From Mizuhopecten yessoensis (taxonomy: Eukaryota): a stretch of DNA of 64,000 nucleotides. The translations under genes were made by a program, and so were the position numbers. The stretch lies in contig NW_018408822.1 of the NCBI RefSeq assembly GCF_002113885.1, forward strand, positions 388,420 to 452,419. The letters are read 5' to 3'. Of the stretch, positions 15,963 to 63,470 are shown piece by piece; position 1 is the stretch's first letter; the number at the start of each line of letters is the position of its first letter. The notes under the pieces are model-generated. The model did not search any database. It was given only the letters and a program-made list of their open reading frames with translations, and was not told where the DNA came from.

Positions 15963-18900
15963 CATGGGCGGATCCAGCATTTCATAAAAGGGGGGGGGGG
16001 GGGGGGGGGCAACTTCATGCCAAAGGTTATTTGAGGACCGAAGGCCGCCGAACGGGGGCCGTAGGCCGGTGCCAGGGTGAGGGCACGAGAGGGGGGCTGG
16101 CAGCCCCCTTCTCGTAAGGGGTGTACGGGGGGTCTCCCCCGGAAAAATTGAAATCCTAGATGACCGGAGATGGCTTTTAAGCACTTTTGAGAACAAAATG
16201 AGGATACTTGTTCATTACATACAAACATCGATATCCTGCAAATTATTTTCCATTCAACTTTAAAATTGGGGCATTATTTGGCAATAGACCCAATGTCACC
16301 CATTGGACTTTTGGATATTAAAGGAATTTAAAAGGTTATACAATACTCAAGTAAATACCACAGGTCAGCAATAAAATCATTATCAAAGAAAAAAGATACA
16401 AGTGTGGACGTAATTTATCTTCAAAAACCAGTAACATGTAAACGTACATGTAAATAAGCCGTTGCATGCGAGGATGAATGTCAATATATATGTATTGGAG
16501 AGGAAAGTACAGTGTCAGATCAAGTAACTAATAACATCGCAATATGACTTCACCACAACAATTTACTTGTCTCCAATTGTTATGTACCAGTCACTGAGAG
16601 AGTATGCAGCCAGCAAACATTTTTCTGATGTGTCTCTGAATGAAGGCCTGGCACACTTTGTCCAAACCAATGTCGATATCATGGTTCATGTTCATGAGTG
16701 CCAGTCCTGTCAGTCTATTTTCTCCCATCCTGTTCCTCAAGTAAGTCGTTAGCCGTCGCAGACAGGAAAATGATCTCTCTGCCTCGCAACTGCCCACAGG
16801 TAGGATACACCCAATTCTTAGCAGCGTGTTGAGATTAGGGAACACATCTTCGTCAGCATTGTCCAGGCAATCCACAAGGTTGAGCGATGAGGCAGGCTCC
16901 ATTGGCATTTTGGTATTCCAAAACCGCTGCCATTCCTTTATCTCCGCTCTGAGAGTTGGTGGATTAGGCAAGTCTTCTTCCCAGAATTTGAGGTTTTCAA
17001 CAACCTTCTGGACATCCTCCGTCTTTGTGATGTTCGGTGGCAGAAGAGCGAGGATCTCTACATCCTTTCTGGTTTCCGGGGTGAATCGGTTTGCGAATTC
17101 CGAAGATAAGTGGTCGCAGAATGGAATTGCCACGTTGCGCAAAAAATACTCACTTGGAGTCGTGCTAGGGGCGTTGAGTCGATGAAGTTGTCGTGCTGAT
17201 TTTGGTGCTCTTGGAGCGGAAATGGGAATGCCGACAAGTGTTGCCAATCGGGTGGCATCCTCAAACCAGACACTGAATTCTTCTTCAATGTCTTTTCGCA
17301 AAGTCACAATCCGAGCTTTGGTCTGGTCAATCATACCGTACGCCTGGTGTATGTCCAAATCCCTCTTCTGAAGCTTAGATGCAATTGGTCTTACATTCTC
17401 TAGTGCATTTTTTGTCACGAGAAAGGCGATTATTGTCTGTGAAGAGCACATACTGGCCAATAACGCCTGCGCCTTCGTCCTTGTTTCTTGGTCCCGGCTA
17501 CCGGTCCAGGTGTCCATGTAAATGTCTGGATATCCAGATGGGTCCAGTATTGCTTCTAGACATTCACATAAGTATCCGTACATATCGTAGAATGTGTCGA
17601 AGCATGTATGTCTCTCCACCCACCGGGTCTTGCACAGCCCAACAAGCTTCTTCTTGCGGGTGGTTGGCGCCATGTTGTCAAGAATTCTCTCGAGGAACCT
17701 CTGTCGTTTCGGAGACAAATCAAAGAACAGAAACACGGCGTTCAGAATGTCTATCATATTCCGGATGGCGGGTTGTTTACATGCACTAGCAATGCTGAGA
17801 TTGAGGACGTGGCTGTTACAGTGAACATATAACGCGCGCGGGGAAAGTTGTCGGATCCGTGCCTGGACACCCATCTTCGCCGAGGACATGCAAGCTGCGC
17901 CATCGTAGCTCTGGACCCTAGCCTGGGATATGTCAATGTGGTTTTGTCTGAGACACTCGGTGATAGCATGTGCTATTGATTCCCCAGTCGCCCTCTCTAG
18001 ATAAACGAAATTGAAAAATAGTTCGCGGACCCTTGGACGTCTACCGGTCAGCAACCTCAAACACACGGACAAAATTTCCTGGTTACTATAGGGGTCAGTT
18101 CTTTCCTGTCGCCAGGTGTTGTTGGAGAACATCGTCGTGCTTTGCCTGCATTTCTAAAATAGCCAAAAAGTTCCCTTTATTTGATGATGTGCTGGTCCGG
18201 TCATCTCTGTGGCCTCTTAATGGAAAATTTTGCTTCCCGCACAGAACAATCGCTTCAGTTGTACATGGTGTACCTTCATTTCCATTGGGGGTTTTCTTGG
18301 CTTTTTTGTGATACCAAACGCCAAAAGTGTTGCCGGTTCATGATTCCGCCTTTTCTTAGGCGCCATGCTATACCAAGACAATATTAAAAGTGAAATTTTA
18401 ATATGCAATAAACTGGAATATAGCATAAAGGAATAGGCTACTATGATGTGTTATCAATGATTAATATTGGCAATGATGGGCTTCCATACTTCTTTATGTT
18501 TTGTTTTAACAAAATACGTCTCATACCGAACTATCTTCAATATGCTTTAACAATTACACAACATATCTTAAAATCGTTGTCAATGAAGTGAACATTTACA
18601 GTTGTTTCTCGTTTTTAGTCTTATTCATATGACGTGTTTTGATTAAGAACTTACCGAGAATCGTAGTAAGTTTATGACCCGACGTTCACCATCTCAAATC
18701 TTCGTCGTCTGCAACAAGCATTATCTCCCCTGTCTCACTACGGTCACCAGTACACACCACCCGGTTTACGCATCTCCTTCGTATTTTTTTTTTATTCGGG
18801 AATCTTAGCAGAACTTACCAGATGGGGTATTTACCAAACATTGCGAGTCGGCGCGTCCGATATTCCGTCATTTTACACAAGTTTATATAATCGTTAAACG

Positions 18901-19656: not shown

Positions 19657-19797
19657 TTAAACTTAATCGATAGTTATATCAAAGTATATTTGAACTCATG
19701 ATACAACATGTCTACGATTGGCACAAGGTCAAATAGTTCTCATTGTGATCATCCCAATACGACTGTTAATTTTTCCAGAAAGTTGTTGCGGAGATAG

Positions 19798-19920
19798 GTA
19801 CCAGACATCGTGATACATACCACGGACTGAGATAATCTAATTCCGTGGTACTAGACATCGCGATACATACCACGGACTTAGATAATCTAATTCCGTGGTA
19901 CTAGACATCGTGATACATAC
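19798..19920. repeat. 50-bp tandem repeat (about 2.5 copies) containing a 27-bp mini-palindrome CACGGACTTAGATAATCTAATTCCGTG
   Basis: Palindromic units at 19821-19847 and 19871-19897, separated by the 23-bp gtactagacatcgtgatacatac. Confidence 0.85.
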
Positions 19921-20599: not shown

Positions 20600-22210
20600 T
20601 AGTTCTGTGTGTTCGTTATCAGAAATTGATACAAAGAATTGCCTTTTTTTGAGAGGAGGACTGACTCCATCTTATCAGAAATAAATATAATTCCCAGTGA
20701 AGTTGAAGATATTATAAAAAGTCTAGATGTAAATAAGGCATCAGGTCCTGACGGTATTAGCCATAAAATGCTCAAATTATTATCTAGCGAGATCTCTGTA
20801 CCGCTATCCATTATTTTTAATCATTCTCTGTCTTCTTGTTCATATCCTGATAACTGTAAAATCGCTCATGTCATGCCTATCTATAAAGCGAATGATGCAA
20901 GTATTACCTCCAATTACAGACCGATTTCATTGATAAGCTGTATTGAAAAACTGTTTGAGCGTTTGGTTTATAAACATGTATATAACTTTTTGATTGAAAA
21001 TGACCTTTTTTTTACAAATATCAGTCAGGATTCTTACCTAACCATTCCACGACACATCAACTTATTGAGCTATATCATTCAATAGTTAACTCTTTAGACA
21101 ATTACGAACATTCTCTATTAATATTTTGTGATTTTTCAAAAGCTTTTGACCGCGTCTGGCACAGAGGTCTAATACATAAATTGAATAATTATGGCATTTC
21201 TGGCCCTCTTCTTCAGTGGATAACTAGTTATCTTTCAAACAGACAACAGGCGGTTTTTATCAATGATTCTCTTTCTTCCTTTAAGGTCATAAAAGCTGGT
21301 GTTCCTCAAGGTTCTGTTCTTGGTCCTCTTTTCTTCCTTATATACATAAATGATATTTCCTGTGATCTTTCCTCTCTCTCTAGACTTTTTGCAGATGATA
21401 CCACTCTTTCTTATTCGTCCCAAGACATAAACACAATTTCATCCAATGCAAAATCTGATCTGAGAAAACTTGAAGTTTGGTCCAAAGAATGGCTGATGTC
21501 TTTTAACCCTACCAAAACTGAGGCCCTAGTCATCTCAAATCGGCAAGTTCCATTCATCCCTGCATTCACATTTAATAATACCCCCATTCAAATAACTAAC
21601 CAACATAAGCACTTAGGTGTTAGTTATTCTTACTAACGACTGTAAATGGAATGTTCATGTTGAATATATTGTCAGTAAAGTAACCAAATATATAGCAACC
21701 CTTCGTAAACTAAAACTTATTTTAAAAAGAAATACATTAGAAAAACTATATCTTACTTATGTTCGACCACTACTGGAATATGCATGTGAAGTATGGGACA
21801 ACTGCGGTGAAACAAATGCCCTGTTACTAGAAAAAATCCATCTAGAAGCTGCAAGAATAGTCACAGGGCTGCCCACATTCACTAAAAAAGATTTCTTATA
21901 TCAAGAAACCGGATGGTTACCCCTTTCGAAAAGAAGAGATGCTCGGAAACTTTCCTTGTTTTATTCTATAGTAAATAACATGGCACCTAAATTTCTTACT
22001 GACTTATTACCAATGTATATTGGAAATATAGCTCCGTATAATTTGCGAAATGCACATTTACTGCGGGAACAGCACTTCCGTTTACAACTATCAAAAAATT
22101 CTTTCTTTCCTTCCACATTAAAATTCTGGAACAACTTGAACAACACTGTAAGAAACTCACCCTCACTAAATTCTTTTATGTCTAATGTAAAAAAGTCCAT
22201 GATAGTAAAT
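20600..22210 (+). mobile_element. 5'-truncated CR1-group LINE ORF2 (reverse transcriptase) fragment, frameshifted
   Basis: KASGPDGI, NYRPISLISCIEKLFERLV, DFSKAFDRVWH, GVPQGSVLGP, LFADD, HKHLGV, RPLLEYACEVW and SFFPSTLKFWN, split over three frames. Confidence 0.92.
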
Positions 22211-23329
22211 AATTTGTTTTACATAAGGTACAATTGTTCCCGGTTGGTGTTATAGTCGAAGTAACAGTAGAAGTTCTTGTCGGTCAATTCCAACGTCAAA
22301 TACTTCTTATTGAAGAAGAATCTACTACGCTTTTTGGCACTCTTTTTCTGGAGGGAAATTTTACGAATTGCTAGTCTACTTTCTCAATGCATAGTGAAGT
22401 CTTATACTTTATTTTTGTTCCAACTAAATGTTAGAGAAGTGAACACCTTCATTATCGTTCTCGCTGTTTGCTAATTTGTAAAGTAAAATAATTTCTCCTT
22501 GGAGTCTAATATAGCGTCGGTAGATTGAGTGAGTTTAGTCTATTTTTGTATCGTAGGCCCTTCATTTGAATTTTGTCAGTTTCTCTTCTTTGTAAATTCT
22601 GTTTTTTTTCTTCTATATTTCAATATTCACATGCTTACCTTCTCAAAGTTAAGCCGTAGTAAATACTCCATTTTATCATTCCCCTTTTAACTTTTAAAAT
22701 GCCTTTTATTTTGCCGAGTTCCTGCTCATCATTTAAAAACATTTTAAATGCACTGACAAAATGATAAAGCTACCGAAATAATGAACACAACACAGTTGTA
22801 GATTCACAAAATGTATTGCAGTAGAAATTGAAATCGATAAATATCTGAAAATGTCACAATAGAGTCAGTAACAACAAAGCAAAGTATTGCGTGACAACAT
22901 ATGGTCTCAAACCGGTAAACGTTTGTTTGTACACCGAATAAAAGGACACTTAATTATCTCAGGGTCAAAACTTCTTCAGAAATCTTCTGATGCGTGAGTG
23001 TTACTTAAAGACATATTTCTAATTGCTGAATAATTTTGCTGCAAATTAACCGATGCTTGCATCATGGATTTTTTGTTTTCAATCATATTTGTCATATAGG
23101 TCACAGCGACCATATGCCCAGATAAACTGCTTGAATGATTTGGGTCAAATGCCAAAATATCAGTTAAACTGATATAGCCTGCTTCCTAATACATACCTGA
23201 ATCCTAGTTTTATAGTAAACAAAATATGTCCCTAATATTTCAAGACTTGGGTCATATAGGTTAAATATTGGTCAAAATGACCTACATTTAGTGCGCAAAA
23301 AAAAACAATCTAAAAATGTATCTGATAAA

Positions 23330-29209: not shown

Positions 29210-32200
29210 CTATGAGTTGACTGACCAGTCATAATCCATGTAGTCTACACGGTACTTCTTGCTGTCTAACAGTTCGGTGAGCTGTGACTTCCTGTCTCCC
29301 TCCGGCATGTGTGCTTGGATCCACTGTAAGACCTGATAAGACCAATAAAATTCACAGGTAAGCTAGCGCTTCAGCTATGCAAATATTGTAGAAATGTAGA
29401 GGAAATATATTCGTAATTATTTCCTACAAAAGAGGATACAATTTCACAGGGCTATGATGTATTGAGGAAGTAAACCTTTAGCGAGTTCTTATCCTATTTG
29501 AGAATTTCAAGTAAAAAATTGTCATTTCATAGCTTAGTAATTTTAAGTATTTCTTTTGGAGACTTCCTGGTCAAAGTTTGTGAGTGTCGGTGATATCTGT
29601 TGCAATGATAAGGCATTAATATATAAAAAAAACATAAATGAAAGAATGACAGCAATCATATGATAGAAAGGGTCTACCAGAGTTATCTCCCCTTTGAAAA
29701 TCACTTCACGGTTTTAGTGTGTTTTGGAGGGTGAAGAAACATGCAGATATCTGTAGACAGGCGTGATTATTAATGAAAGCATTGAAAATAATGATAACTA
29801 AAACTTCAAGTCACAAGCTTATATACTCTTCTCCATGAAAAATGATTTAAAATCAGTTGAAATACAGATATATCTAGTGATGAGAATGTGTAGCAGTTTC
29901 ATAAAAGTCTGCTTGAAGGTTTTATTAAAATAATGCTGGAAATAAAGTATTGCAAGGTTTGCTTATTTTGCAGGGCTCTTTTTTTTTTGCTACTTTCCAG
30001 GAAAAATTATACAACCCTCAAAATGTATGGCACATTAATCCAACCTTCCTGTAGCATGTACATGGTGTCACAGCCACTAGACCATATATCCGAAAAAAAC
30101 AGATCCCACAAAAATGATATTTTAGGAAAACCAACAAAAACTGTTTACTATATATAAATTATCTAAGGATAAAAATATTTAGCTAATGAGGATAACTCCA
30201 GTAAATATAGCTGGGTAAAAAAATGATATACTGGATTACAATTCTAAACCAGATCTTACTGGGATCAACTATTTCATTGCTTGACACAGGGTCTGGTTTA
30301 ATTTATACTGAGAGAGATATACTGGATACCAATGTTAATGATTTTTGTTATAGAGGATAATTTTACATCAACATAAAACCAATTAAGAAAGTTCCATTAT
30401 TTAACAGGAAAGTCAAGACTTGCTGTACGTATGGCATACAGATCATGACTGATTACCAGAAAAGGAAAATCACTAAGTAATGTTATGTTAAATCAATTTC
30501 AAATAAAACATGGTTTCTCTGAATGTAATAAATGTCAAAATGGTTGTATTAGAAACAAAATAAATAATAATTAACTGTACCTCCTCTTTATTCTTGCCAA
30601 AGTCTTCCTGATACCACTTCAATATCTTGGAAAGTCTGATCTGCCGTTTTTTCATGTCAATCTGACAGCCATCATCACCCTCAAGGAAAGCCTCAGCAGC
30701 AACTTTCAGTTGTTCGTATATACCCTGTTGTACAGAACCGCCTTAAAATCTTTAGTTCTCTATGGTACATCTGTATTTATCTGGCAATATGCTCATGCCA
30801 GCTATTGTAGGAGAGTAGAATGCCAACAAATGCTATACATTTTCCTGTAAATATCATCCCTGTAGTTTGAGCCAGAGATAAAGTGTACTTCCCTGAGTAA
30901 ATTGTAGGATATACATGGTTAACACTCTGTCATACAGAACACCAATACCAGGTTAACACCCTGTCATACAGAACACCAATACCAGGTTAACACCCTGCCA
31001 TACAGAACACCAATACCAGGTTAACACCTTGTCATACAGAACATCAATACCAGGTTAACACCCTGTCATACAGAACACCAATACCAGGTTAACACCTTTA
31101 TCTTCATAAATGTACACTACACTCTAAATTACTTAATTTTCATGTATATATTTTTTCTTTTTTCTTTTCTTTTGTTCCTTCAAAACTACATTTGCAAAGA
31201 AAAAATCACAAAAGGAACAATAGGAGCTTAATTTAATATTCATTGTTTGTGTCTAAATAAATATTCCCAAAACGTTTCATTTTGTGATGGTATCTCCTCA
31301 CTAATTCCTATGAATATAAGTATCGCACATAACATTTAAGAATTCAAAGTAAGTCTATGCTATATCGAGGTAAAACTTATCATACTTCTGAAAAAATGCA
31401 ACCTTCATGAATTTAAAAAGATAATGAAGCTATTCACATCCCTTGGAAATAACTAACACCTGGTAAATAGTTTATGAAACTATCAACCTCTTCATGACTA
31501 TTAAAATGTAATATTTTTTTGTACTCCAACCAATTTTTTTATCAAAAACATTATTTGACTTTTTAAAAGTTGGTTGGCTGTTGTACATGCTGTTAACCAA
31601 TCAAAGATTCTGTTACCAAATTGATTTTCAACTATAGAATGGTCAACGGTAGTCTAATGGTAGGACGCCGGGCTCGTGACCTTCAGCATAGAATCTACGC
31701 AGATCTGTCCAAAACATTCACATTATTCAGATTTCACTGAAAAGACTAGTAGAATAAAACACTCATTCCATGGCTATTTTGGATGACAGCACATTTGTTA
31801 GTCCCTTGGCAGGAGTTTTCGTCAAGCTTCACCGTCAGAAAATAGTTCCAGCTTAGTTAGGGCATAAACCAACATGCTATCTTCCAAAATAGCCATGTGA
31901 TTATAAATGTACAGTTTTCCTTTTATATACATGTACTAAATGATGTACTTGAGACTATACAGGAATTGGTGTCAAAAATCTCAATCTATTAAGTATATCT
32001 GAGAGTTAAGTTAAATGAGACTGACCTTTGTGGAGTAGGTTTTTATGGGCGGACAACTCTTGGCTCCACATACAAGTGCAAAGTGAATGAGTGGCTCATG
32101 TTTCTCCAAAGCTACTTTGAAGCGCGGCTCTGACTGGGAAAATGGTCTAGTGAACATACCTGTCAATGAGTAAAAGAGTCAAGTATGATTGTTATTATGT

Positions 32201-35200
32201 CACTCACCAAGGGTTTTGAAAATGTACAAATAAATGTATATATTCTTATTGAGCTTGACCTTAAATATCTTAAATCTAAATTGGTGAACAACAGCATACA
32301 GGTGTGGTGATGTTCCATTACATTATTTTGAAAAAAAATCAGTGAATTTTAACTTCACAGTGATATTGTAGTAGGGATCTTTATCTTTGCCTGTGAATCT
32401 TTGCCTGTGTTTTAACTCTTTGTCTCCAGAATATTGCCCCCTTTTATCGACCAGGAGTTCTCACTTGAAATATCAAAACAATTCTTCTTGAAATTTGGCT
32501 ATGATAAACTTATTATATACCACAGCTGAGACATAAAACTACACTACAGAAACAGCTTTTAAAACTTGTATAGAATTATCTTATCCATTGTGATCCCCTT
32601 TTTGGGCCTCTAAGAAATTACATGTAGGTCAAAAATAGCAGTGTCCTATATCATACCCAACATGCATGCATAACAAGTTTGAATATGTTTCAAAATTTTA
32701 AGAAGTTAAAAATGTAAAAATAAACATGTCGTAAATGGCAAAAGTTTAACTTGTATTTCATAAATACAGACTATGATCTGGAGTTGAACAATATTAAATC
32801 AGTAATCTAAAAGTATTAATCAAAATATATTTTGGTGTACGTTAATTATTAATTCATAGGCAATCTTTCTGCCCTCGACTTACCAACACCCTTTCTGTTT
32901 GCCCGCAGTACACCATTCTCAATATCCTGGAGCGAGTAGGATTCTCCACCAATGATGTAACGAGTTGTGTTGAAAAACTGAAACAAAAACATGGGACATT
33001 TAGGTATCAACAGAATCAGACAATATCTCTGTGTGTTAGGCGAGGAGAAAACATGGCATGGTTCAAAGAGATGTTCACGACATTTAGGTACATGTATCAA
33101 CAGAATCAGACAATATCTCTGTGTGTTAGGTAAGGAGAAAACATGGCATGGTTCAAAGAGATGTTCGGAACATTTAGGTATCAACAGAATCAGACAATAT
33201 CTCTGTGTGATAGGTAAGGAGAAAACATGGCATGGTTTTAAAAGATGTTTAAGCTGTGAACGTAATATCTAATGGTTTTGATGTTTTAATTAAAAGAATG
33301 TTGACCTTAACATGAACTATCATTTTAAACTTGAAAAAAATGTAGGTTGGGAAACTATTTTATTCCGTTTAACAAATATAAAAACAATTTTAACTGATTT
33401 TTACTAAATTCTTAAATAATAAAAGCTATATGTTATTATTTGTTGCATGATTTGATATCAAAAATGTACAATGCAGGGATATTCCTGGAGGGGGCCGTGG
33501 GGCTTGGCCCCTAAAACCTGGAGTTTGGCCCTGATAATTTCCATTTTCTTTATATTTTACATATACCAGTACATGTTATAATTATTGCACCTTTTACTTT
33601 TCATATAAAAACGAAAATGGCCCAAAGTCTACCATTGCTCTCAGCTTCCAGGATTTTTCCTGCCAGGCCAAATTGAAAATTAATCCAATGCTTTTCTCAC
33701 TGCAAACTGGTCATTAGCATTGATCAGAAGTGAAATTCAAATTTCGCTGAGTGACTTCACCATCTTTCCATTGAATCTAAGATCTTTCCATGGAAAGGGA
33801 AACCCTTCCAATACTTTCAAATACTGTTTTTGAAAATATGAAATAAAACAAGACACCTTCATGATTGTGAAAGATAAATTTTCCATTTTCTACCTTAGCA
33901 TACATGTACCATCATAACTCCCAATACCTGTAACAATCACTAGTCAAATTATGAACATGACGTAGAAAGAATGGACATATTATTATCCTTAACATTTCAA
34001 GTTTACAGTAACTAATATCTTGCCAATTTGGGAAATATAATAATTATTGAAATAAATATGGCAATTGGTCATCCTATTTACCTTAATCATGAATTACATT
34101 GTAATTTTCAAAATATCAACAGATTATTTTGATATTAATTAACCAGTGTTGTATGAACATAATAACCAACCACCATGTGTTGGGGAAACTTACAATAGTA
34201 TTATTATATATACCTTATACCTCTGCCAGAGGTTTGTTGCTGGGCCAACAGACACATTGGCATGGATGACCAGGGCATTGTATATATTTATGAAAAATGA
34301 TAACTTCTCTTCGCGAGTAGCCTCTGAGATTTGGACACGATGAAGCTCCTTCGTCAGTCTTCCGTACACTTCAAACTCCTTGCTTTCAGCTATACCTTTG
34401 TAGTTCACTTTCTTATTTCAGGGAAAAGTTGAATAAGATAAACCTTAACAGCATGGACATTTAATATCATTTTAATATATTATGCATATCCCAAAGTGTT
34501 CACCTTTAACAAGGAACAAAATACATGCTGAGGTTTCATTTTATATTGTAAGTTGTAGATAGTTAGAATGAAAACATTAAAATGACTAAAGCTGTTGTTT
34601 AAAATGTTTTAATCACAAACAGTCTTGTTATATTACCAAACAGAATTCTAATTCGATTTAATACATGTTGTATTTATACAAGTTGTATGGCAAAATTCAT
34701 GAAATTCAAGAGATTGTATTTAGATACCTTTCCATCCTTTGATAAAAAAGTATTGTATATCTTCAGAATCTGTTTCCTGATTTCCTCCCCCAGTTCATCA
34801 GCTGTGCGAAATAAAAATATGGATACGTGCAAGTCATCTTTGTAAACAAAACATTCCATATTATACATTGACCTCACCAGGGAAGAACTTGTACTTGAGG
34901 TTTCATTGGCATTTTTACCTGATTTGTGTCCCAGGAATCCAGGTTGTACTTATAACTAGGAGTACCACCAATAAAATGTATTTAGAATTTCCATAGAAGT
35001 AATAGGCAAGAAACAAAACCATGTATATAAGTAATAAAGGATATCCCCTGTATCTCTTCATGGTAAGGGTGGTACAATGAATGCCATGTATATTTCACAA
35101 GTATGACAGAATACTGATATTTTTCACAAGTGTGAAGCACAAGGGAAGTTATTAGTACATGTATATTCTATCATATAGGAGAGTGAAAGATAACAGATAT

Positions 35201-38200
35201 ATCAAATTGATAGAATGCAATATTTCACTGGTGAAATGTTTTAATAAAACAGGGTTGGTGACCTTGACATGCACATTGAATACAAATTTAAGTCATGATC
35301 TGTATGTACACACCTGGTCTTGGTTCACACTGGGACGTTTCGCCCGCATTAAGGGCCGAAGACTCATCATCTTCCAACAGTCTATAGTACTTGTCTGGAG
35401 CATCCTGGAACACTTCCTCACTCTTCACATTGTGACCAAAGTGCTTATCAATCAGGGCCTGACCCATCTCAACAGCTGCATCTCGTTCTAGAAATAGAGA
35501 TCAGTATACATAGACAGGGCCTGACCCATCTCAACAGCTGCATTTCTTCGTTCTAGAAATAGAGATCAGTATACATAGACAGGGCCTGACCCATATGAAC
35601 AGCTGCACTTCGTTCAAGGAATATAGATCAATATTCATACACAGGGACTGACCCATCTCAACAGCTACACTTCGTTCTAGGAATATGGATAAATATAAAT
35701 AGACAGGGCCTGACCCATCTCAACAGCTGCACTTCATTCTAGGAATATAGATCAATGAACATAGACAGGGCCTGACCCATCTCAACAGCTGCACTTCGTT
35801 CTAGAAATAGAGATCATTATACATAGACAGGGCCTGACCCATATCAACAGCTGCACTTCATTCTAGGAATATAGATCAATATACATAGACAGGGCCTGAC
35901 CCGTATCAACAGCTGCACTTCATTCTAGGAATATTGATCAATATAAATAGACGGGGCCTAACCCATCTCAACAGCTGCACTTCATTCTAGGAATAAAGAT
36001 CAATGAACATAGACAGGGCCTGACCCATCTCAACAGTTGACTTCGTTCTAGGAATAAAGATCAATGTATATAGACAGGGCCTGACCCTTATCAACAGCTG
36101 CACTTCATTCTAGGAATATAGATCAATATACATAGACAGGGCCTGACCCGTATCAACAGCTGCACTTCATTCTAGGAATATAGATCAAATTTACATTTGC
36201 ACTGCATAGTGCCTAGATAACTCTACTGGTCCCATTGTAATATATTTTCCAATGAACTACAACGGGGATTAGGTCAGTGTAGTGATACATAATTTCAACG
36301 GAAAACACAGTCATGCCCACCACAGTTTTAACAGAAAGCACAGCATCAAAATTGTCTACTTCATCTTCTGCATATATCAGTCTAATTTGTCTTCATTCAC
36401 GTCAGGTTCTACCTTTCATGGATGTTCATTTACCTTCGATAAACAGTGAAAACTTTCAATAATGGCCGCCTCCGCCAGCTGATCTCTGACCTAATTACCG
36501 CCAAGTGGCGATGTTCCGCTGTGCTGTGTCTTAAAATGTTATTGTATGATAGTTAAATCGCTAAATGACCACAACATATATTAAAATGGTCACATGTTAG
36601 TATACAAATTGGTAATTGACATATATGCATTTAAATAAAAAAATTTTATTATAAAATTGATGTGTTTACTGTGGAACTTTCTTATTTATTTATTTTGCCG
36701 GCCTGGTTGCCCTTGACAACGACTGTGGAATGCGAAACTACCCGGCTGTTCCGAACAAAATATGACAACCAATCCTTAAATATACATTGACAGGGCCTGA
36801 CCCATCTCAACAACTGCACTTAGTTTTAGGAATACAGATCAATGTACATAGACAGGGCCTGACCCATCTCAATAGCTGCAATTTGCTCTAGAAATAGAGA
36901 TCAGTATACATGTACATGGACAGGGCCTGATCCACTTCACTAGCTGAACTAGTAATCCTTTCTTGCACGAAATAAAAATGAATATACATAGATATAGGGC
37001 TTGACCAATCTCACCAGCTGCGCTTCATTCTAGGAAAATAGATCAATATAGATAGACAGGGCCTGACCCATCTCAGTAGCAGCATTTTGCTCTAAAAATA
37101 AAGATCAATTTACATGGACAGGGCCTGCTCACTTTCAACAGCTTAACTAGTAATCCTTTCTTTCACGGAATAAAAATGAATATACATAGACAGGGTCTGA
37201 CCCATATCAACAGCTGCACCTTGACTCAGGAAACAAAGAAAAACACAGTATGTAGCACCTAGTTGGTGGTCTAGTTTTCACAGCAGTGACATCTGGCTGT
37301 CAGTCTGGTTTATACAGGATTACAAAGAAATTCATACAGTATGTAGTACCTAACTGGTGGTCTGGTTTACTTCTGGTTCACACAAACGGTCCGGATTATA
37401 CAGGGTTACGTAGAAATAAATAGAGGGACTGATTGAAGGCCTGTTTTATAAAGGTGTACAGATCTTACAGGATTACAAATAAATGTGCAGAGTCGAACAT
37501 AGTAAAAGGTCTTCAGGTTTTATGCTTTTTACAGGGTAACAGAGAAATGTATACAATGTGAACTGTTTGAATATATGGTTAATAGAGTTTTCTGTATTAT
37601 ACAGGTTTAAGATCTGATAGGACCACTTATTCAAAATTACACAAGTAAAGTTAGCTTACCAAGCTCCTTTGTCTTGACAACCCAGTCCACAAACTCACGG
37701 CCCACGAAGGAGCGTTTATAAGTGGTAAGTATCTTAGAGTGGTCCTTGATAAGACCACTGGCCTTTAAGTCCTGTACCAGCTTGGCATACTCATCTGGTT
37801 CACATGAAAACTCGCCAGCATCTGAAACAATCAACTTTCTTATTAACAATTCCTTAAACTTAGGTCTCCCTCCTAAAAAGTTACATACTAAATATATGTG
37901 TCATAAAACTTCACTGTCAATATATTACCTTCTAGAAACACATGTTGTATGTATCCACCAATTAAACCTGTATGGCTGGTAATAAGCCCACTCATATCTA
38001 TTGCAGTTCTTAGAAATGCCAACAAATGTTATTGCATAATTGTCCTGAAATAAGCCCACCCCCATACCTTGAATCAAACATCATGAGGAAGTCCCCTGGG
38101 GCATCCTCCATACTCCAGGGGTTGTGTTTACTTTTACTCTCTGCACCCCTTGGAATATGTCATAGCAAAACCGGAGGCTCGATCAGTGTGCGCCACCTTG

Positions 38201-41200
38201 TGGATGAGGCAGGACGACTAGTTTGATCCTTTGAGGTACATCAGAAGAATCTCTGTAGTGGGGTCGCTCCTCTGTAATCTTCAAAGGACAGGTATCAGCC
38301 AAGCGATTGGTCAGTTTTTTTTTACCCGAGACCAATGAAATAGCTACCCACGTGCCTTCAGTTTTATTATGACATATTCCAGGGGTGCAGAGAACATTAG
38401 TGAGTGTAACCCCTGTAGTATCAAGGATGCCCCTAGAGCTATTACAGGATAAATATGGTAGCTTTCCAAACAAATGTGTGTTTCAAACCAGTTTTTTAAT
38501 TCCTGAAAAGATCGTTTTAATTTATACAGTGATATTATACACATACATACACATACATGTTTGTAAAGGGGTGATAACCATTACAGAATCAATGCTTCCT
38601 ATTAAATTGGGGAAGTGGCGGTGTTGTATAGATAATTAATTTAAGGTCTAGGAAGGGCAGGAGTCAAAAATTGACATTCTTAATAAATTTTACTTATTCA
38701 TTATGTACCAAACTACTCTAGCTTCTTTTAAAATTGAAATATCTATGGAATGAGAGTTGTAACTGTACTGTGCTGAATATACCACACATGTAACTTTTCT
38801 CTTAGCTTCTTATCTGAATTGTGCAAAAACTACAATATATCATGAAATGTAATTATACGCAATACTAATTTAAACCACTATTAACCAGAAAATCAGCACT
38901 AAATAATACACTCAATATACATCAGTATATGTAGCAACTAGCAAATAGACATTTATTATTGAGACATTTTAATATGTTCAGGTATAGACAACCATATAGA
39001 TAAAGAAGTAGTTGAAGTACCAGAGTCTTTGACAGCTGTGCTGGGGTCTGGTGGCTGTGGGGCATCACTTCCGGCTACATTGTTCTTCAGCTCCTCAATG
39101 CTTGCCTCCCACTGACTTTTGTCATTCACCTGCATTATAACACACAAAGCTCAATATTTTTTTTCAAAATCAAAACAAATTCAACTTTTGTGCCTTTGTC
39201 ATCCTGGGGAAAATGGAGTATTTATAGCATGAACAAAATGAAGATAAAAATTCATCAAGGAAGAACATCATAATAGCAATAAGGTTGCAAAGGAATCTAC
39301 CAATAGCATTCAGCTCATACCTATGTATAGAAGTGTGTACATTTAAGTATGTTTGAATGTATATGTTTCGATAAAACTTTATATAAGTCTGAAAGTCAAG
39401 TAGAATACATCATATGAGTGCATGTTTCAGGGTGCTCAGACTTAAAGTCCAAGGTCACTATTGCTTTTTATAAGAAATCTTTATCATCATACTTGTTTAC
39501 CATTAACACAGGTTGTAGAGTTCTTAGATTTGTGTTAAACTATATTACTACATGTAGTAACATTTCAGCAAAAAAATTCAAGTTGCACATCTAAGAGATA
39601 GGGACATTTATTGTTTGTTACCGCAAGTATAAATCTTAAACAAACATTTGTTTAATTTTGTTTATAGGGGTCTCCATATGAATTAATGTACTACGCCTGA
39701 AGTGGAGACCATTTACTGGTTAAAACAATGTGAGTGAGGTTACCCAACCACAGCTGGTCATCAGTATCAGGCCAGGAGAAAGGGAGGGCGACAGAGATCC
39801 AGCTCACTGCCATCTCCGACAGCTGGTCATAAGTATAAGGCCGTGAGAAAGGGAGGGTCACAGAGATCCAGCTCACTGCCATCTCCAACAGCTGGTCATA
39901 AGTATAAGGCCGTGAGAAAGGGAGGGTCACAGAGATCCAGCTCACTGCCATCTCCGACAGCTGCTTTCAGAATATCATCATCTTAAAATATTTAAAGTTG
40001 ACTTGTAACAGACATTAGTAATGTGCTTCCATCGGGGATCAAACCTGATACCACCAGCGTCTAAGTCCATTTTGATGGTGACCTACCACAGAATGCAGGG
40101 GACATCATTTGTAATAGGAAAGGCAATAGTACATGTGCTGTCACCAGGAATCAAACACACGACACACTGCAGCTTCCCAGTCTGCCGCTCTACCAATTGA
40201 GCTAAAGGGAAATTACCTCTTTATTGGTAAGTTTGATGGTAGAAGGCGGCCACAATGGAGAATTAATCTACCACAATCTGAGCATTGGGACCGAAAACAA
40301 CAAAACCAACAAACAAATGGCAAGGTGAAATTATATACTCCACTACCATTGGTGTATCACTTTAATGTTTGATGACACTGCAAACTAACTCTCCAGTTGT
40401 TCTGTCGGAGTCAACTGTTTTGAAAGGTGTTGCACCAATTAAGCAAATTAAGGTATAGTTTACTATAAATATGATAGAATCATTGCCATTTAAGTTTTAA
40501 AAAGTTAAAGCTGTAAAACTGTGGACATGACCAAATATGGTTCCATGCAATGTAAGTCTTTGCTATATATATACATGCAGTTACATGCTTGTAAATATTT
40601 ACACATCTACATTTATGTCCATCTGAGCACACATGAACCCATTTCTCTCCAGTTTTAATGAGCATTAGAACCATGTTTTTCTGTTTGTTATGCTTGATTA
40701 TGTAAAAGGCACATTGCATAACCCATAACGTATCACTATAGTCATTCCCCTGTTTTTATTTTATATTAATTATGATAAAGAAAGAAGTGAAAATATCCTG
40801 ATTATTCAAGAAAGATTTGTTTAAAGAAAGTTACAATTTAATTGAACCTTTATCTTCAAATGAATGAAACCTATCTCAACGGAATTGAACTTAAATATAA
40901 ATACAACAACATGTATCAACTTAAATATTTCCCTGTCCTCTTATGTAAGTTTGTTTGTTCACACCTGAAAGGAATTGAAACTGCAAGCCCCTCTCAAAAT
41001 ACAGTAACACAGCAGAACTTCTATTTCAATTTCTCCTTATTAGGATAAATTGTAAAAGGGAGGCTATTTTCATTTGCTTAACAATCCTACAGCTTTAACC
41101 CTGACCCTATATATCACATCAGTGCTTTACTCCCCACTTTAACCAGGGGTGGGTGTGTCGGGTATGATGTTCTGGACCCACCCACAATTCAAAAAGACTA

Positions 41201-41801: not shown

Positions 41802-42439
41802 ATTAGTTGACGACAAGTTCCAGAATGTGACAGCGAGAGATTCTATATCCGGGTATCGTCGGTATTGACTCGGTACAGATCGTGTCGGATATTTGTAAGA
41901 CTTGATCAATGAACTCACCCCAGCGGAAACTACACATAACAGGCGTAGACCGCGAATCATGTTCCGTGTTGGAAGTCCTGCCTGGAATGTTGGTGTAGGG
42001 GGAATAACTCCTATACAATTTGTAGTATTTTGTGACATGTTTTTTTGTGCTCACATTAGCTTTTTGCGACACTTGTTCGTAAATTTACATCACTGAAAGA
42101 CATGCAATTTTCATTTCAATAAAAAAAAAATACGAACAGTTACAAATGAACTAAATCAGAGACATATAAAGCCATGCGGTATATACGTCTCTGACTAATG
42201 TTATAAATAGCTCTTGTTGTCACACCTCTCATGTGAGTTTCCTGTACCAATGATGAGTAAAGACAATTGTTCCCTTTTCTCTGAATATCAAGTGTAGCAT
42301 TGTGTGCATTTTTATCGTCCGAAAGAAACATTTACGTTTAATTGCCAGAAATGTAAAAAAAAAAATTGAATATATATATATATACACAGTATGTCATCAT
42401 TTAAATCACAATATACATTTAAAATGTATAGGTAATACT

Positions 42440-42726
42440 AATAATAATAATATACAGCATTTATATAGAGCCCTATATAATTTGTAAAATTACTCTGAGG
42501 CGCTTTACAACATATGTATAATAGCAATGGTTATAATTGTGAAAACAAACAACAAAGGCTTGCAATCACTTTCATACATTTATCAAGCAATGTGCACATA
42601 ATTGAACAAATAAAAGGGTGGTATTTACATGACGTCTTTGCAAAGATTCTAAAATGCAGACATGAAGAGGTGAGTTTTTATGTCCTTCTTGAACTTGGCC
42701 AGGGTATTCGACTTCCTAATAGCAGA
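42440..42726 (-). mobile_element. L2-clade LINE 3' end (ORF2 C-terminus, 3' UTR, (TTA)n tail)
   Basis: Minus strand: IRKSNTLAKFKK followed by an out-of-frame KTHLF-like motif, then ttgtaaagcgcctcagag...gctctatataaatgctgtatattattattatt, a typical L2 tail. Confidence 0.75.
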
Positions 42727-42749
42727 NNNNNNNNNNNNNNNNNNNTCGA

Positions 42750-45669
42750 ATGCAGGTGAATGACTGTGATGTGCGTTTTCAACTAGACAGTGCTGCGGAT
42801 GTAAACACTATATGCAAACGGTATGTTCGGCGTGAACAGGTACGTGCATGCACGACAAAGATTCGCATGTTTAATGACAGTACTCTATGCCCTGAAGGTG
42901 AAGCAACGCTTAACGTACTGAATCCTAAGAGTGGAGAACAGCATAATGTAAGCTTTATTGTGGTCCCTAACAAGCTACAGTGCCTCCTAGGACTTACAAC
43001 AATTACAAAGCTTGGATTTGTGACTGTGAATCAAGAAAAGTTCATTGGGAAGATTGAAACTACAAGTCAACCAGGAGATTTGGGTGAGGTTACTCTAACT
43101 ATTGACCCCGAGGTCAAACCCGGATTCCTGCCCTGTAGGAAAATACCCATCGCTCTTAAGGATCGTGTAAAGTCTGATCTTGACAACCTTGTTGAGAGAG
43201 GTATTCTGATACCAGTGACAAAGCCCACAGCCTGGGTCAGCCAGATGGCTGCAGTACACAAACCTAATGGCAAATTACGAATCTGCCTAGACCCTCAAGG
43301 TCTCAACTCTGCCATGCTGCGAGAAGGTTATGCCTTACCAACACTGGATGATGTACTACCTAAGCTATAAAATGCACGTGTATTCAGCAAATTGGATGCT
43401 AAAGAGGCTTTCTGGCATGTCCGTTTAGACGAACAGTCTAGTGAACTAACCACTATGATCACGCCTTTTGGTCGCTATCGATGGGCACGCCTACCATTTG
43501 GATTAAATGTATCCAGTGAAATTTTCCAACGCAAGTTAAACGAGGCTCTTGAAGGACTTGATGGAACATTCACCATTGCTGATGACATCATCATTGCAGG
43601 ACAGGGAGAAACTGATGAGGAAGCACACCGGGATAATGACAGGAAACTGCAGGAGTTGTATAAACGTTGTGATAAAAGGAACATAGTGTTAAATGAAGAG
43701 AAGAAGGTGATAGGGCTGAAAGAAATCACTTTTCATGGTCACACCATCACAAATGAGGGGGTGAAAGCTGACCCCAAGAAAATTACAGCTATCATTGATA
43801 TGCCAAGTCCTGTGGATGTTGCAGGTGTGAAAAGATTTTGTGGTATGATTCAATACATGGCGAGGTTCTTACCTTGTCTGTCAACAATGTTAGAACCAAT
43901 GAGAGCTCTGACTCGCAAGGACACTGATTTTAACTGGTCATCAGCCTGTGAAGATGCATTCCGAGAGGTGAAACAGAAGCTCACAAGCGCCCCAATACTT
44001 TCATATTTTGACCCTGGGAAGGAAATATGGCTGCAGGTTGATAGTAGCAAAGATGGACTCGGTGCTGTTCTACTCCAAGATGGGAAACCCATTGAATATG
44101 CGTCTCGGTCTCTAAATCCCTCGCAACGCAAATGGGCACAGATTGAAAAGGAAGCTCTGGCTGTACTATACGGTGTAGAAAGATTTGACCAATCCACCTA
44201 TGGACACAAGATCATAGTACAAAATGATCACAAACCTCTAGAGTACATTTTGAGGAAACCTACCAGCAGTGCTCCCCGTCGGTTGCAAGATATCACGTTA
44301 AACCTCTTAAGGTACGATATTGAGTTTAGATTCCTTAAAGGTGATAAACTTATCATTGCCGATACTTTGAGCAGAGCAACGGTCGCTGACCCATCTGAAA
44401 ACCGTGATCGTATCATGTCAGTGAGCGTAAACGACAACCTAAGTGATAAGAGACTTACTGAGATAAGGGAGGCTACTCTGGAAGATGAAGATCTACAATG
44501 TCTGAAGAACAATATCCGGGCCGGATGGTCAGATGAAAAAAGGGATGTTGAGGACTGTTGCAAGCCCTATTTCGACATGAGAGACAATCTAAGCGTCTAT
44601 GAAGAAATAATTGTAAACGGAGAGGCAATAGAAATCCCCAAGGCCTTACGAGCTGATGTGAAATCTCGACTACATAGTTCGCACACCGGCTATGACTCAA
44701 TGATGCAGAGAGCGCGGGGTACCGTCTACTGGCCCCATATGAACTCTGACCTCAAACAACTAGCTGAAAGTTGTGAAGCCTGTCAGGAACTTAAACCGCG
44801 TACAACAAATACACTACTAAATCAACATGATGAAGGACAAGCCCCGTGGCAAAAGATTGGTTTGGAATTGTTTGAAATAAAGGACAAGCGCTACTTGGTC
44901 AGCATTGACTATTATAGTAACTTCATTGAGGTTGACCTCTTACAGAAAACTACTTCAACTGTGGTCATTGGCATCCTCAAGAAACAATTTGCGAGATTTG
45001 GCATCCCGAGGACCATAGTATCAGATGGTGGCCCCCAGTTCACCTCGAGTGAATTCAAGACATTTACCTCAAAGTGGTGTATTTTTCACCAGACCTCCTC
45101 ACCTCACCACCAGCGAGCAAATGGTAAAGCAGAATCTGTGGTGAAGGTGATTAAAAACTTAATGATAAAATGTGAGCGGAACAGACAGGACCAATTCGAG
45201 GCTTTGATGGAGCTGCGGAATGTTCCTCGACAGGACACTGGACTGAGCCCTAACCAACTTATGTTTGGACGTCAAACGCGCACTTTGCTTCCAGCATGGA
45301 ACCAGGAGGCAGGAATGAAAAGTGAAAAACGGGAAAAGCGGAAGAAATCGTGATTTGCCGAGATTAAAGCGTGAACAAAATGTGTATTTCGAACACAAAC
45401 CGGAAGAGAGGTGGACACTCGGAAAGGTACTAGACGCCATTGGCGAGTACACATACAGAGTGCAAGCACAAAATGGTGCTACATACAGAAGAAATCGGGT
45501 TCATATCAGACCCACTCGTGTGGAAGCCGTGCACGACCCAGAAAAGACTGCTCCAAAAGTACATGTGGAAACACAATTAACGCGGCAGCCCAGTATCGCT
45601 GGACGTGAACACCGCCCAGTGCGCCAACGAAAAGAACCTGGCTATTTAAAAGACTTTCTTCGTTACTGA
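42750..45669 (+). pseudogene. Gypsy pol polyprotein (protease, RT, RNase H, integrase) with one in-frame stop (43368-43370) and a frameshift near 45330
   Basis: LDSAADVN (protease); LRICLDP, LPFGL, IADDII (RT); VDSSKDGLG, QIEKE, NDHKPL (RNase H); HSSH...CEAC, SDGGPQF, NGKAE (integrase); YRRNRVHI tail. Confidence 0.92.
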
Positions 45670-49759: not shown

Positions 49760-52700
49760 TAGATTGTTGTATCACTTTTACATTCCCGCCACCCGTAAAC
49801 AACATTTTGGAAAGCAAAGATATGTCTGGAGAAAAACATAAACTTGTATATGTGCGTACAATTTTAAAGCCGGCATCAGCCTTTATGTCTTCTCACAGAC
49901 TAAACTGAATTTGTTTTGTGTCATTAAAGTTTAATAACTAAAGATCACATATCTGAATTCCGATGTTTTATTTGGGTCTTCAACTATAACTTATTACGGT
50001 GTTGAAATAATGCAAAAGCGATAGTTTTATGTCCAGATCTTTCGGAATAGGACTAAAGATAACTCACCTTGCCGTTAATGCCATTCGTGAACCATTGAAC
50101 CATCTGTCTCAAACCATGGTACTCCTAACTCTTACTATACACTTCACCTCTCTACAACCATGTACTATTGTTACCTCTTGTTTAGAACCACGTACTTGTG
50201 TTACCTCTTGTTTATAACCACGTACTTGTGCAACCTCTTGTTTATAACGATGAACTATTGTTACCTCTTGGTTATAACCACATACTTGTGTAACCTCTCC
50301 CCCATAACCACGTACTTGTCTAACCTCTTGTTTATTGCCATGACCTATTGTTACCTCTTGGTTATAACCACGTACTATACACTTCACCTCTCTACAACCA
50401 TGTACTATTGTTACCTCTTGGTTATAACCACGTACTTGAATAACCTCTTGTTTATTGCCATGACCTATTGTTACCTCTTGGTTATAACCACGTACTTGAA
50501 TAACCTCTTGTTTATACCCATGAACTATTGTTACCTCTTGTTTATAACCACATACTTGTGCTACCTCTTGTTTATAACCACGTACTTGTATAACCTCTTG
50601 TTTATAACCATGAACTATTGTTGCCTCTTGTTTATAACCATGTACTTGTGTAACCTCTTGTTTATAACCATGAACTATTGTTATCTCTTGTTTATAACCA
50701 CATACTTGTGTAACCTCTTGTTTATAGCCATGAACTATTGTTACCTCTTGTTTATAACCACGTACTTGTGTAACCTCTTGTTTATAACCATGAGCTATTG
50801 TTACCTCTTGTTTTTAACCACGTACTTCTGTTTATAACCACGTACTTGTGTAGCCTCTTGTTTATAACCATGAACTATTGTTACCTCTTGTTTATAACCA
50901 CATACTTGTGTAACCTCTTGTTTATAACCACGTACTTGTGTTACCTCTTGTTTATAACCATGAACTATTGTTACCTCTTGTTTATAACCATGAACTATTG
51001 TTACCTCTTGTTTATAACCACGTACTTGTGTAACCTCTTGTTTATAACCATGAACTATTGTTACCTCTTGTTTATAACCACGTACTTGTGTAACCTCTTG
51101 TTTATAACCACGTACTTGTGTAACCTCTTGTTTATAACCACGTACTTGTGTAACCTCTTGTTTATAACCACGTACTTGTGTAACCTCTTGTTTATAACCA
51201 TGAACTATTGTTACCTCTTGTTTATAACCACGTACTTGTGTAACCTCTTGTTTATAACCACGTACTTGTGTAACCTCTTGTTTATAACCACGTACTTGTG
51301 TAACCTCTTGTTTATAACCACGTACTTGTGTAACCTCTTGTTTATAACCACGTACTTGTGTAACCTCTTGTTTATAACCACGTACTTGTGTAACCTCTTG
51401 TTTATAACTACGTACTTGTGTTACCTCTTGTTTATAACCACGTACTTGTGTAACCTCTTGATTATAACTACGTACTTGTGTTACCTCTTGTTTCTAACCA
51501 CGTACTTGTATAACCTCTTGTTTATAACCACATACTTGTGTACCCTCTTGTTTATAACTACGTACTTGTTTTACCTCTTGTTTATAACCACGTCCTTGTG
51601 TAACCTCTTGTTTATTGCCATGACCTATTGTTACCTCTTGTTTATAACTACGTACTTGTGTAACCTCTTGTTTATAACCATGAACTATTGTTACCTCTTG
51701 TTTATAACTACGTACTTGTGTTACCTCTTGTTTATAACCACGTACTTGTATAACCTCTTGTTTATAACCACGTACTTGTGTAACCTCTTGTTTATAACCA
51801 TGAAATATTGTTACCTCTTTTTTTTAACCATATACTTGTGTTACCTGTCTCTAATGTGTTGTTACCTCTGACTATTAACACCCCGATCACCTTTTACTAC
51901 TGTTACCACAAACCATGTACGTAGTATATATTAGTGTTACTCTGACCATAAACAAGTGCTATTCGTTCCGTGTGCTTGTAAGATTACCTCTGAATCTAAC
52001 AACTCTGGTTTGCTCCTGGTTATATTAATCACATACTAATATTAAGATTTAATACGGCGTCAGCCCATGTACAGCGCTTAAATCTATATTGTACTGCATT
52101 GTTCGATGTTTCAGTTAACAGAACACGGCTTTCGCCTAACCATGCACTATAGAAGTCTACGATGTGTCACGTCGAACTCATAGTCTACATGAATATTTTA
52201 TTAGATGTGCCTAGCACGATTCGTCCATACCGAAGCATTGGCAAAAGGTCTAGTATAAATCAATGCAAAATCTGTAGGAAGTCATTGCTAAAGTCGTGTC
52301 AAACGGTCGAATGCAAACTGTATATGCCCTAAAACAAAAGCACAAACATGAAGTGCTATTTGCACGAACATTGCATGCCGTATAACAACAGAAGTAGTGA
52401 TGGTCACACAATATTACATTCGGTACATAACGAGCACTTTAGGTTAGTAGCGATCCTCGCACGGAAATTACATTGCTCTTTATACAACAAAAGCACTTGT
52501 ATATAGCGGTTGAGACTTTTTATACAACGAACTACGAGAATGTATTGTTCCTTACACGGACTTTTCCTTAGGTATATAACGAAAACAGGTATGTGCTGTA
52601 ATCGTCATAAGGAAATGACATCTGAATGTAACGAAATTACGTATATTATATACATCGACCGGCACACGGGAATAATATTCCTTGTATAACGGAATCAAAT

Positions 52701-61991: not shown

Positions 61992-63470
61992 AGGGTTGTG
62001 TGTGTCCCAAGGAAGTGTAGGCAGGTTTTGTGTGTCCAAAGGCAATGTAAAACCAAACAAACTAAGTTATAAAAGGCAGGATTGTGTGTCCCAAGGCAAT
62101 GCAAAACAAAATAAACCAAGTTCTAAAATTTAGATTTTATGTGTCCCAAGGCAATGTAAAACAAAATAAACCAAGTTCTAAAAGGCAGGTTATGTGTGTC
62201 TCAAGGCAGTGTAAAAAAACAAAAACAAAGTTCTAAAAGGCAGGATTGTGTGTCCAAAGGCAATGCAAAACAAAATAAACCAAGTTCTAAAAGGCAGGTT
62301 TTGTGTGTCCCAAGGAAGTGTAGGCAGGTTTTGTGTGTCCAAGGTAATGTAAAACAAAATAAACTAAGTTATAAAAGGCAGGTTTTGTGTGTCCCAAGGC
62401 AATGCAAAACAAAATAAACCAAGTTTTAAAATTTAGATTGTATGTGTCCCAAGGCAATGTAAAACAAAATAAACCAAGTTCTAAAAGGCAGGTTATGTGT
62501 GTCTGAAGGCAGTGTAAAACAAAATAAACAAAGTTATAAAAGACAGATTTTATTTGTCCCAAGGCAATGCAAAACAAAATAAACCAAGTTCTAAAAGGCA
62601 GGTTATGTGTGTCTCAAGGCAGTGTAAAAAAAACAAAAAACAAATTCTAAAAGGCAGGATTGTGTGTCCAAAGGCAATGCAAAACAAAATAAACCAAGTT
62701 CTAAAAGGCAGGTTTTGTGTGTCCCAGGGTAATGTAAATACATATAAACAAAGTTCTAAAAGGCAGATTTTGTTGTCCCCAAGGCATTGGAACAAAATAT
62801 AAACCAAGTTCTAAAAGGCAGGTCTTGTGTTTGTGTGTCCGAAGGCAATGTAAAACGAAATAGTTCTGAAAGGCAGGTTTTGTGTGTCCCAATGCAATGT
62901 AAAACAAAATAAACAAAATTCTAAAAGGCAGTTTTTGTGTGTCCCAATGCAATGTAAAACAAAATAAACAAGATTCTAAAAGGCAGGTTTTGTATGATTC
63001 AAGGCAGTTGAACAAAACAAATCATTTTCAAGGCAGGTTTCCGAAGGCAATATTAAACAAACTAAAATAGGTATTAAAAGGCAGGTTTTGTATGTCCCTA
63101 GACTATTAAAAATAAACCAAGTGCTCAAAGGCAGGTTTTGTGTATGTGTGTCCCAAGGCAGTAAAACACAAAATCAACCAACTTCTAAAGGGCAGGTTTT
63201 GTGTGTCCCATGGCGATCAATCAAATGTCTGTCAAGGTTCTAAAGACAAGTTGTGTGTGCCAAAAATAATTTCTTAAATGATTCTTAGCGACATGATTTG
63301 TGTAGCCAAAAAATATATAACACATCATTGACAAGATTTGAAGAGGCAGGGTTTTTGTGTTCAACGGCGATCTAACCCAACATTGAAATGTTCTAAGAGA
63401 CTGACTTTGTGTCTAAGCTATCTGATACAACATTGATAGGTTATAATGGGCAAGGTTTGTGTGTCTCGGG
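61992..63470. repeat. About 54-bp satellite (AAGGCAGGTTTTGTGTGTCCCAAGGCAATGTAAAACAAAATAAACCAAGTTCTA), about 25 copies, decaying rightwards
   Basis: Direct inspection, with higher-order duplication of 61995-62290 in 62295-62700. Confidence 0.92.

Follow-up and report, generated by a model that had tools for sequence, protein, structure and literature searches.

Minisatellite-like tandem duplications that join the 3' end of an intron to the 5' part of the following exon are known from the amphioxus globin gene BflGb6 (Ebner et al., PMC3087553). They are termed 'mirages', a name that follows the amphioxus Adh3 case, and the globin gene BflGb9 is also listed among the mirage minisatellites in that paper. 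As described in its part on BflGb6, AG and GT are present in many but not all units, splicing is regular and the length of the array is unstable (PMC3087553). Further lancelet examples are PGBD5 and troponin C, and the passages on them in PMC3902484 report that regular splicing is undisturbed.

Human genes provide two related arrangements. The CBS allele 844ins68 carries a 68-bp duplication across an intron/exon junction, and it is the distal site that is used (PMC2630376, PMC1802585). Human minisatellites at donor sites have been described in F7 IVS7 (37 bp), IFI6/6-16, CBS IVS13, LMNB2 and PDGF (PMC1557585).

The locus described here is an array of tandem copies of the intron 3/exon 4 junction in a Grx-DEP-DUF547 gene of Mizuhopecten yessoensis. 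Only the last copy is used in the RNA seen, and the array is likely to be a mirage minisatellite that is neutral to selection. Neither a scallop mirage nor one from any other mollusc was found in the open-access literature, and the scallop case therefore widens the published range beyond the lancelets a little.

The host gene and its repeated junction

The window, the whole stretch of 64,000 nucleotides that was analysed, comprises positions 388420-452419 of its contig and was screened within the 988-Mb M. yessoensis genome. The host gene is LOC110464448, a Grx-DEP-DUF547 gene whose RefSeq product (P0001, 531 aa) is labelled uncharacterized. Pfam places a Glutaredoxin domain at residues 60-119 of P0001, DEP at 189-255 and DUF547 at 330-457. 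A model with ten exons on the minus strand (41801-29209) and the acceptor at 35487 reproduces P0001 from residue 54 up to the C-terminus, exon 6 matching it at 100%. Intron 3 is located after residue 218, within DEP, and is in phase 1. Ahead of the conserved MELKGRV start P0001 carries a 53-residue N-terminal extension (41802-41960); homologues in Pecten, Ylistrum, Haliotis and Mytilus have similar extensions, and that of P0001 could represent a targeting peptide in a gene with two start codons.

In plants the GRX, DEP and DUF547 architecture goes by the name of class IV glutaredoxin (PMC13621322). LOC110464448 shares the order of the three domains, whereas the plant proteins are longer, about 630 aa against the 531 aa of the animal homologue; by the account given in PMC13621322 the function is uncharacterised in the plant proteins, as it is in the scallop protein.

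The features of the junction are as follows, in the direction of transcription:

37660..37821, minus strand: exon 3, with the donor TTG/GTAAGC at 37660/37659; the model equals P0001 here, and the exon 2-3 joint (37821-39021) is present in 25 reads of the RNA run X24
35488..37659, minus strand: intron 3, 2172 nt, GT..AG, phase 1; array and insert occupy its 3' 1.75 kb
37191..37222, minus strand: partial unit, the 5'-most, with the exon-like part only, aligned to the terminal unit
36791..37190, minus strand: distal block of units D1-D6 of 72, 62, 62, 74, 68 and 62 bp, with 74-90% identity to the real unit
36779..36790, minus strand: stub of a split unit, its first ~12 nt, the remainder being P1
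36190..36778, unstranded: dispersed repeat of ~0.59 kb, placed inside one unit at a T-rich site
35515..36189, minus strand: proximal block of units P1-P11 of 61-65 bp, with 81-98% identity to the real unit
35488..35514, minus strand: intron part of the terminal unit, with a branch-point-like CTGAT (A at -14), a pyrimidine tract and the TAG that is the used acceptor
35314..35487, minus strand: exon 4, 174 nt, which contributes its first 35 nt (35453-35487) to the unit

The repeat unit combines 27 nt of intron end (TATACTGATCTCTATTTCTAG) with the first 35 nt of exon 4. An initial annotation of this DNA had given the unit this make-up and had counted about 19 copies, in agreement with the 18 full units (six distal, eleven proximal and the real terminal unit) and the one partial unit near 37191-37222. 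It had also drawn the array as continuous from 35453 to 37220, which is incorrect, as the dispersed repeat interrupts it at about 36190-36778; its unit length of 62 bp describes the proximal block but not all of the distal units, which measure 62, 68, 72 or 74 bp. Tandem Repeats Finder places 12.0 copies of the 62-bp unit, with 89% matches, at 35453-36196; a second, decayed block, at 36779-37219, has a higher period of 204 bp. The distal block is a duplicated triplet with this period, in which D1 resembles D4 and D2 resembles D5.

The homologous AG is retained in 13 of the 17 upstream copies and the internal GT in 15. In the distal block the AG persists in D2 (37091), D3 (37029) and D5 (36887). 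In the proximal block it persists in ten of the eleven units, whose first exon-like bases are 36171, 36109, 36047, 35986, 35924, 35862, 35800, 35738, 35676 and 35552, while P10 reads TTG instead. Any two units differ at between 1 and 21 positions. P11, the copy 65 nt upstream of the real acceptor, is identical to it from -27 to +5. Elsewhere in the M. yessoensis genome no further copies of the unit were found by a search that may miss common words. Exon 4 itself encodes ERDA at a site where most of the upstream copies would encode ERSA and two an N; the site reads ERST in Ylistrum, ERSV in Ostrea and DRNV in Pecten, and the array may retain earlier states of exon 4.

The dispersed repeat has 74 matching pieces in 40 scored of 98 candidate places genome-wide, at 84-98% identity. 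An inverted copy of the 5' end of the element is present in four of the five other copies compared and is deleted here. The element is likely a non-autonomous transposon, and we take its layout to recall that of Helentron-derived non-autonomous elements. Its junction with the array is identical to the reference in contigs of X15, a 2025 run that is unlabelled and likely DNA.

The window contains other repeats and mobile elements. An array in intron 6 (32996-33249, 90 bp x 3) stops 18 nt short of the acceptor of exon 7 (32977), and its repeated sequence includes the branch-point region without the AG; arrays thus stand at the 3' ends of two of the nine introns of the host gene (introns 3 and 6). 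Two minisatellites lie away from splice sites, in intron 1 (39750-39963, 69 bp x 3.1) and intron 8 (30917-31096, 34 bp x 5.3). On the plus strand at 19797-19920, a 50 bp x 2.5 repeat is flanked by an acceptor-like TTTTTCCAG and, right at its end, by a donor-like GTAAGG, and is possibly an exon with an internal repeat. Translation by eye reveals a Ty3/Gypsy-like pol with stops beside an assembly gap that lies a short way upstream of the host gene (42723-45669, plus strand), a hAT-like transposase (16591-18153, minus strand) and LINE reverse-transcriptase pieces (20630-22255, plus strand). A single open frame of 476 codons at 8339-9769 (plus strand) has no obvious repeat origin. The long ORFs in three large satellites, at 2-4146 (32 bp x 130), 50156-51846 (30 bp x 57) and 62019-63214 (55 bp x 21), are repeat read-throughs.

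Decoy products and acceptor choice

Intron 3 contains 140 AGs, and the full product (478 residues) arises from 35487 only, as had been proposed for the most downstream copy. All 13 upstream copies with an AG would lead to an early stop, 818-2360 nt before the last junction. In seven of them the stop is immediate (G/AA TGA), and in four it follows after 20-21 residues at the in-frame TAG or TAA of the next unit, both of which had been pointed out in the initial annotation. Its statement, made for the copies translated there, that an upstream acceptor yields a stop within one unit is true of these eleven but not of P3 and P9, which would add 26 and 48 new residues. The decoy exons would measure from 239 nt (P11) to 1778 nt, against 174 nt for the real exon 4.

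Each unit had further been credited with a micro-exon encoding ERSAAVEM, bounded by the AG and the internal GT. The AG-to-GT segment is indeed 24 nt long and keeps the frame, and the GT is as frequent as noted above, but among the 13 copies with both AG and GT only one encodes ERSAAVEM, while seven carry a stop and one a frameshifting deletion. The corresponding donor-like site in exon 4, TGG/GTCAGG at 35464/35463, is weak and its use is not seen in RNA.

Splice-site strength was gauged by pyrimidine counts and U1 matches relative to the nine introns of this gene. The decoys have 7-9 pyrimidines in 11 positions and the real acceptors of the gene 5-9; the donor-like site of the unit, with 5/9 U1 matches, equals the weakest real donor. 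With these counts and the identity of P11 to the real acceptor, core sequence does not explain the choice of acceptor.

Acceptor use was assessed in RNA; none of the 24 sequencing runs listed was recognised as an NMD-blocked library. Four raw RNA runs (X19, X22, X23 and X24) were mapped on the exon 2-3 side (37225-39700). On the exon 4 side (35245-35514, likeness 85, loose ends listed from three reads), the RNA runs X23 and X24 were used together with RNA contigs (X8) and the X15 contigs. The evidence on decoy use comes from reads that reach exon 4. An attempt to determine the acceptor from the exon 3 end was abandoned as a repeat near 38100-38450 crowded the loose ends there, leaving depth and the exon 2-3 joint usable; this interspersed repeat in intron 2 attracts hundreds of partly fitting RNA reads per run from other loci. 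The letters that follow exon 3 identify the acceptor: AACGAGATG for the real one, AACGAAGAAATG for P11 and AATGAAGTG or AACGAAGTG for the others.

In the polyA run X24, all 15 loose ends at 35488 with shown letters carry the end of exon 3 (agreement 1.0), base 35488 being common to both sides of the exon 3-4 joint, and 14 loose ends at 35314 carry exon 5 letters. By depth arithmetic 16 reads of X24 and two of X23 end at the real acceptor, and one X24 read continues into the array with a 62-nt step back. The junction depth is low, amounting to 19 reads from two runs of which about a quarter each was read, with mates possibly counted twice. Array-derived reads thus make up at most 1/19 (95% interval 0.1-26%), and no decoy or micro-exon joint was identified among the 19 junction reads (95% upper bound 23-26%). 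At the listing threshold of three reads, neither a 24-nt step back nor a loose end from the internal donor appears. Among the X8 contigs, a 3434-nt mRNA contig with a depth of 126 joins exons 3, 4 and 5 directly, and depth over 37225-37639 is 0 in all four RNA runs. The 15 reads and the mRNA contig fit the suggestion that the spliceosome ignores many near-perfect acceptors here. Judged from the exon 4 side, in steady-state RNA at low depth, the junctions come out for 35487 in all 15 reads with shown letters, and no decoy joint was identified.

X8 also contains a 92-nt array contig with a depth of 4.65, up to 3.7% of the mRNA depth. As proof of decoy use it was rejected, being a collapsed P8-like loop (92 = 62+30) with a mean 31-mer multiplicity of 1.76. 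The X8 contigs leave the intron part of the terminal unit uncovered, with a depth of 0 at 35497-35514.

A probably neutral array and its alternatives

The copies have diverged evenly across positions. The mean deviation from the array majority is 0.106 per position, 0.111 in the intron part and 0.103 in the exon part, and the latter has no codon-position pattern (0.112/0.113/0.083). The 13 of 17 intact AGs compare with 13.6 expected under uniform decay, and the splice signals of the decoys show no sign of selection. Identity to the real unit drops with distance (Spearman 0.60, p 0.012, for 17 units that are not independent; p 0.25 in the proximal block alone). Concerted evolution inside the cluster, from which the boundary unit is exempt, belongs to the amphioxus definition of a mirage. 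In the scallop array the real unit departs from the majority sequence at five positions, but P11 and P7 lie within 1-3 aligned positions of it. Some units are close to one another, with 1-6 differences within the groups P1/P2/P5/P6 and P4/P8. The TGA variant amounts to a single C>T change of the CpG type (CGA>TGA), and the unit tree suggests that it spread by copying. A case for selection that disabled the nearest competitors, from the loss of the AG in P10 and of TGAT in P9, is post hoc with one event each and was not counted.

These observations are consistent with a neutral duplication of the mirage type that is likely tolerated through exon definition and NMD. The proposed history starts with a duplication of 62 bp that spanned the acceptor, so that the exon stayed intact at the downstream end only. 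Slippage or unequal crossover would then have enlarged the array in steps of single units and triplets, and a transposon would have landed in it, with the copies now decaying at one rate across all positions. Arrays with units of at least 28 bp number 11, cover 14.7% of the window and occur in four of the nine introns of the host gene. If 62 bp of the gene were duplicated at random, the chance of covering an acceptor would be about 3.4%; a duplication across an acceptor is therefore not rare here.

The last AG would win through pairing across the 174-nt exon with the exon 4 donor, that is, by exon definition, and leaked decoy products would be cleared by NMD. Such clearance is proposed because the next TAG falls in frame, given the length and phase of the unit. 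With the same core as the real site and an exon of 239 nt, P11 is the one decoy whose silence exon size alone may not explain. The array could serve as a natural minigene for the choice of 3' splice sites in a mollusc, in which the contrast of P11 with the real site would separate exon definition, exonic enhancers and NMD as reasons for acceptor choice.

A first alternative, which is unlikely though the best of those considered, is an unselected leak, whereby some transcripts use upstream copies, most likely P11, and are destroyed by NMD. A variant of it would produce a pseudo-exon of 86 or 148 nt from the AG of one unit and the GT of a later one, and longer arrays would lower expression slightly as a side effect. 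The 13 intact AGs with pyrimidine counts like those of real acceptors, the donor-like site and the position of every decoy stop far before the last junction all allow for such a leak, as do the single array read in X24 and the X8 array contig. There is precedent for it in human IFI6 (6-16) and CBS intron 13, where proximal pseudo-donors of the minisatellites are used (PMC1557585). The X8 array contig is however a loop of one P8-like unit, decoy read-through would need the bases 35497-35514 that the X8 contigs leave uncovered, and the single X24 read is comparable to intronic background, of which a read at 39549-39700 is an example. X24 contains 25 exon 2-3, 15-16 exon 3-4 and 14 exon 4-5 junction reads, counts that follow different rules but would be compatible with a leak. 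The bound that the RNA sets on decoy use is weak, since the products of the decoys are predicted to be degraded by NMD; if a 10-fold decay is assumed, the point estimates allow for 18-36% and the upper bound for 74%.

It is improbable that the array is self-poisoning, with sizeable hidden decoy splicing to NMD and an array length that sets gene output as a heritable VNTR rheostat. The listings of literature searches contained no title on an acceptor VNTR that tunes NMD. If the idea were true, it would provide a copy-number splicing variant of a redox-signalling gene in farmed scallops.

A still less probable form of this idea takes the array for a selected device, that is, a regulated cassette of poison or decoy exons or a bank of micro-exons whose copy number acts as a heritable rheostat. 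The in-frame TAG would make each read-through product self-poisoning, with an immediate stop in seven of 13 copies, and the 24-nt segment preserves the frame. Against this, an in-frame TAG is expected by chance in one of three cases, the TGA variant is a single change whose spread by copying is suggested by the unit tree, and splice signals within the array are not conserved above background. Moreover, there is no micro-exon in the reads or contig examined, a transposon-like insert is tolerated, and the unit order in X15 is that of the reference with no hint of length variation. The decoy or poison rheostat of the initial annotation accordingly finds no positive support, with AG decay at background, no micro-exon joint and no copy-number difference in X15.

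The X15 contigs contain D2-D6 in the same order and with the reference spacing of 62+68+74+62, and also match the P4/P5 junction, a P9-P10-like pair and the 65-bp P11. X15 may itself derive from the source DNA of the reference and its short-read contigs cannot give the total array length; at the junctions covered in this one run no copy-number difference is visible. An apparent extra perfect copy of the real unit in X15 record 3 was discarded, as second pieces always show 0 differences, even for D5 and D2, and the record is not a length variant, the 'CA' between its pieces being the start of P10. A seeming SNP in the stub was likewise set aside, as it comes from the consensus of three contigs. 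Short tandem units are hard to assemble and the exact copy number could be off, but a mis-assembled expansion of the junction is barely conceivable, with units that differ by 1-21 positions and X15 contigs that reproduce units, spacing and the insert junction; the array is therefore not an assembly artefact.

Comparison with described systems

Regulated poison exons give a product with a premature stop, have conserved splice signals and show detectable inclusion with a regulated rise under NMD block. The scallop decoys resemble a poison exon or AS-NMD cassette in that 13 of 13 carry a premature stop far before the last junction, and differ from it in splice signals that are not conserved above background within the array.

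The F7-type minisatellites are similar in that the end unit spans the exon/intron boundary and the authentic site is mostly the sole one used, whereas it is the 5' donor that is repeated there and the 3' acceptor in the scallop (PMC1557585). IFI6 and CBS IVS13 differ further, as the nearest pseudo-sites are used there too (PMC1557585). CBS 844ins68 shares with the scallop array a duplicated 3' splice site of near-equal size, the use of the downstream copy and a normal mRNA. It has two copies only, and as reported in PMC2630376 and PMC1802585 it is G runs between the sites that promote the distal one.

The closest likeness is to the mirages of amphioxus. Both consist of tandem copies of an intron 3' end and an exon 5' part, with units of 10-160 bp there and 62 bp here, and in both many but not all copies have the AG, identity being 81-100% there and 74-98% here; regular splicing is undisturbed in both (PMC3087553, PMC3902484). 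The scallop array has 18-19 units as opposed to 3-6 in BflGb6 and is split by a dispersed repeat, and length and somatic instability are described for Adh3 and BflGb6 but not for the scallop array (PMC3087553). Its unit spans the boundary and the authentic junction is the end unit; its units of 61-74 bp are diverged, with AG and GT in 13 and 15 of the 17 upstream copies; and splicing is undisturbed in steady-state RNA, as judged from 15 of 15 reads and the X8 mRNA contig, with one array read. The scallop array belongs to the described class of mirage minisatellites.
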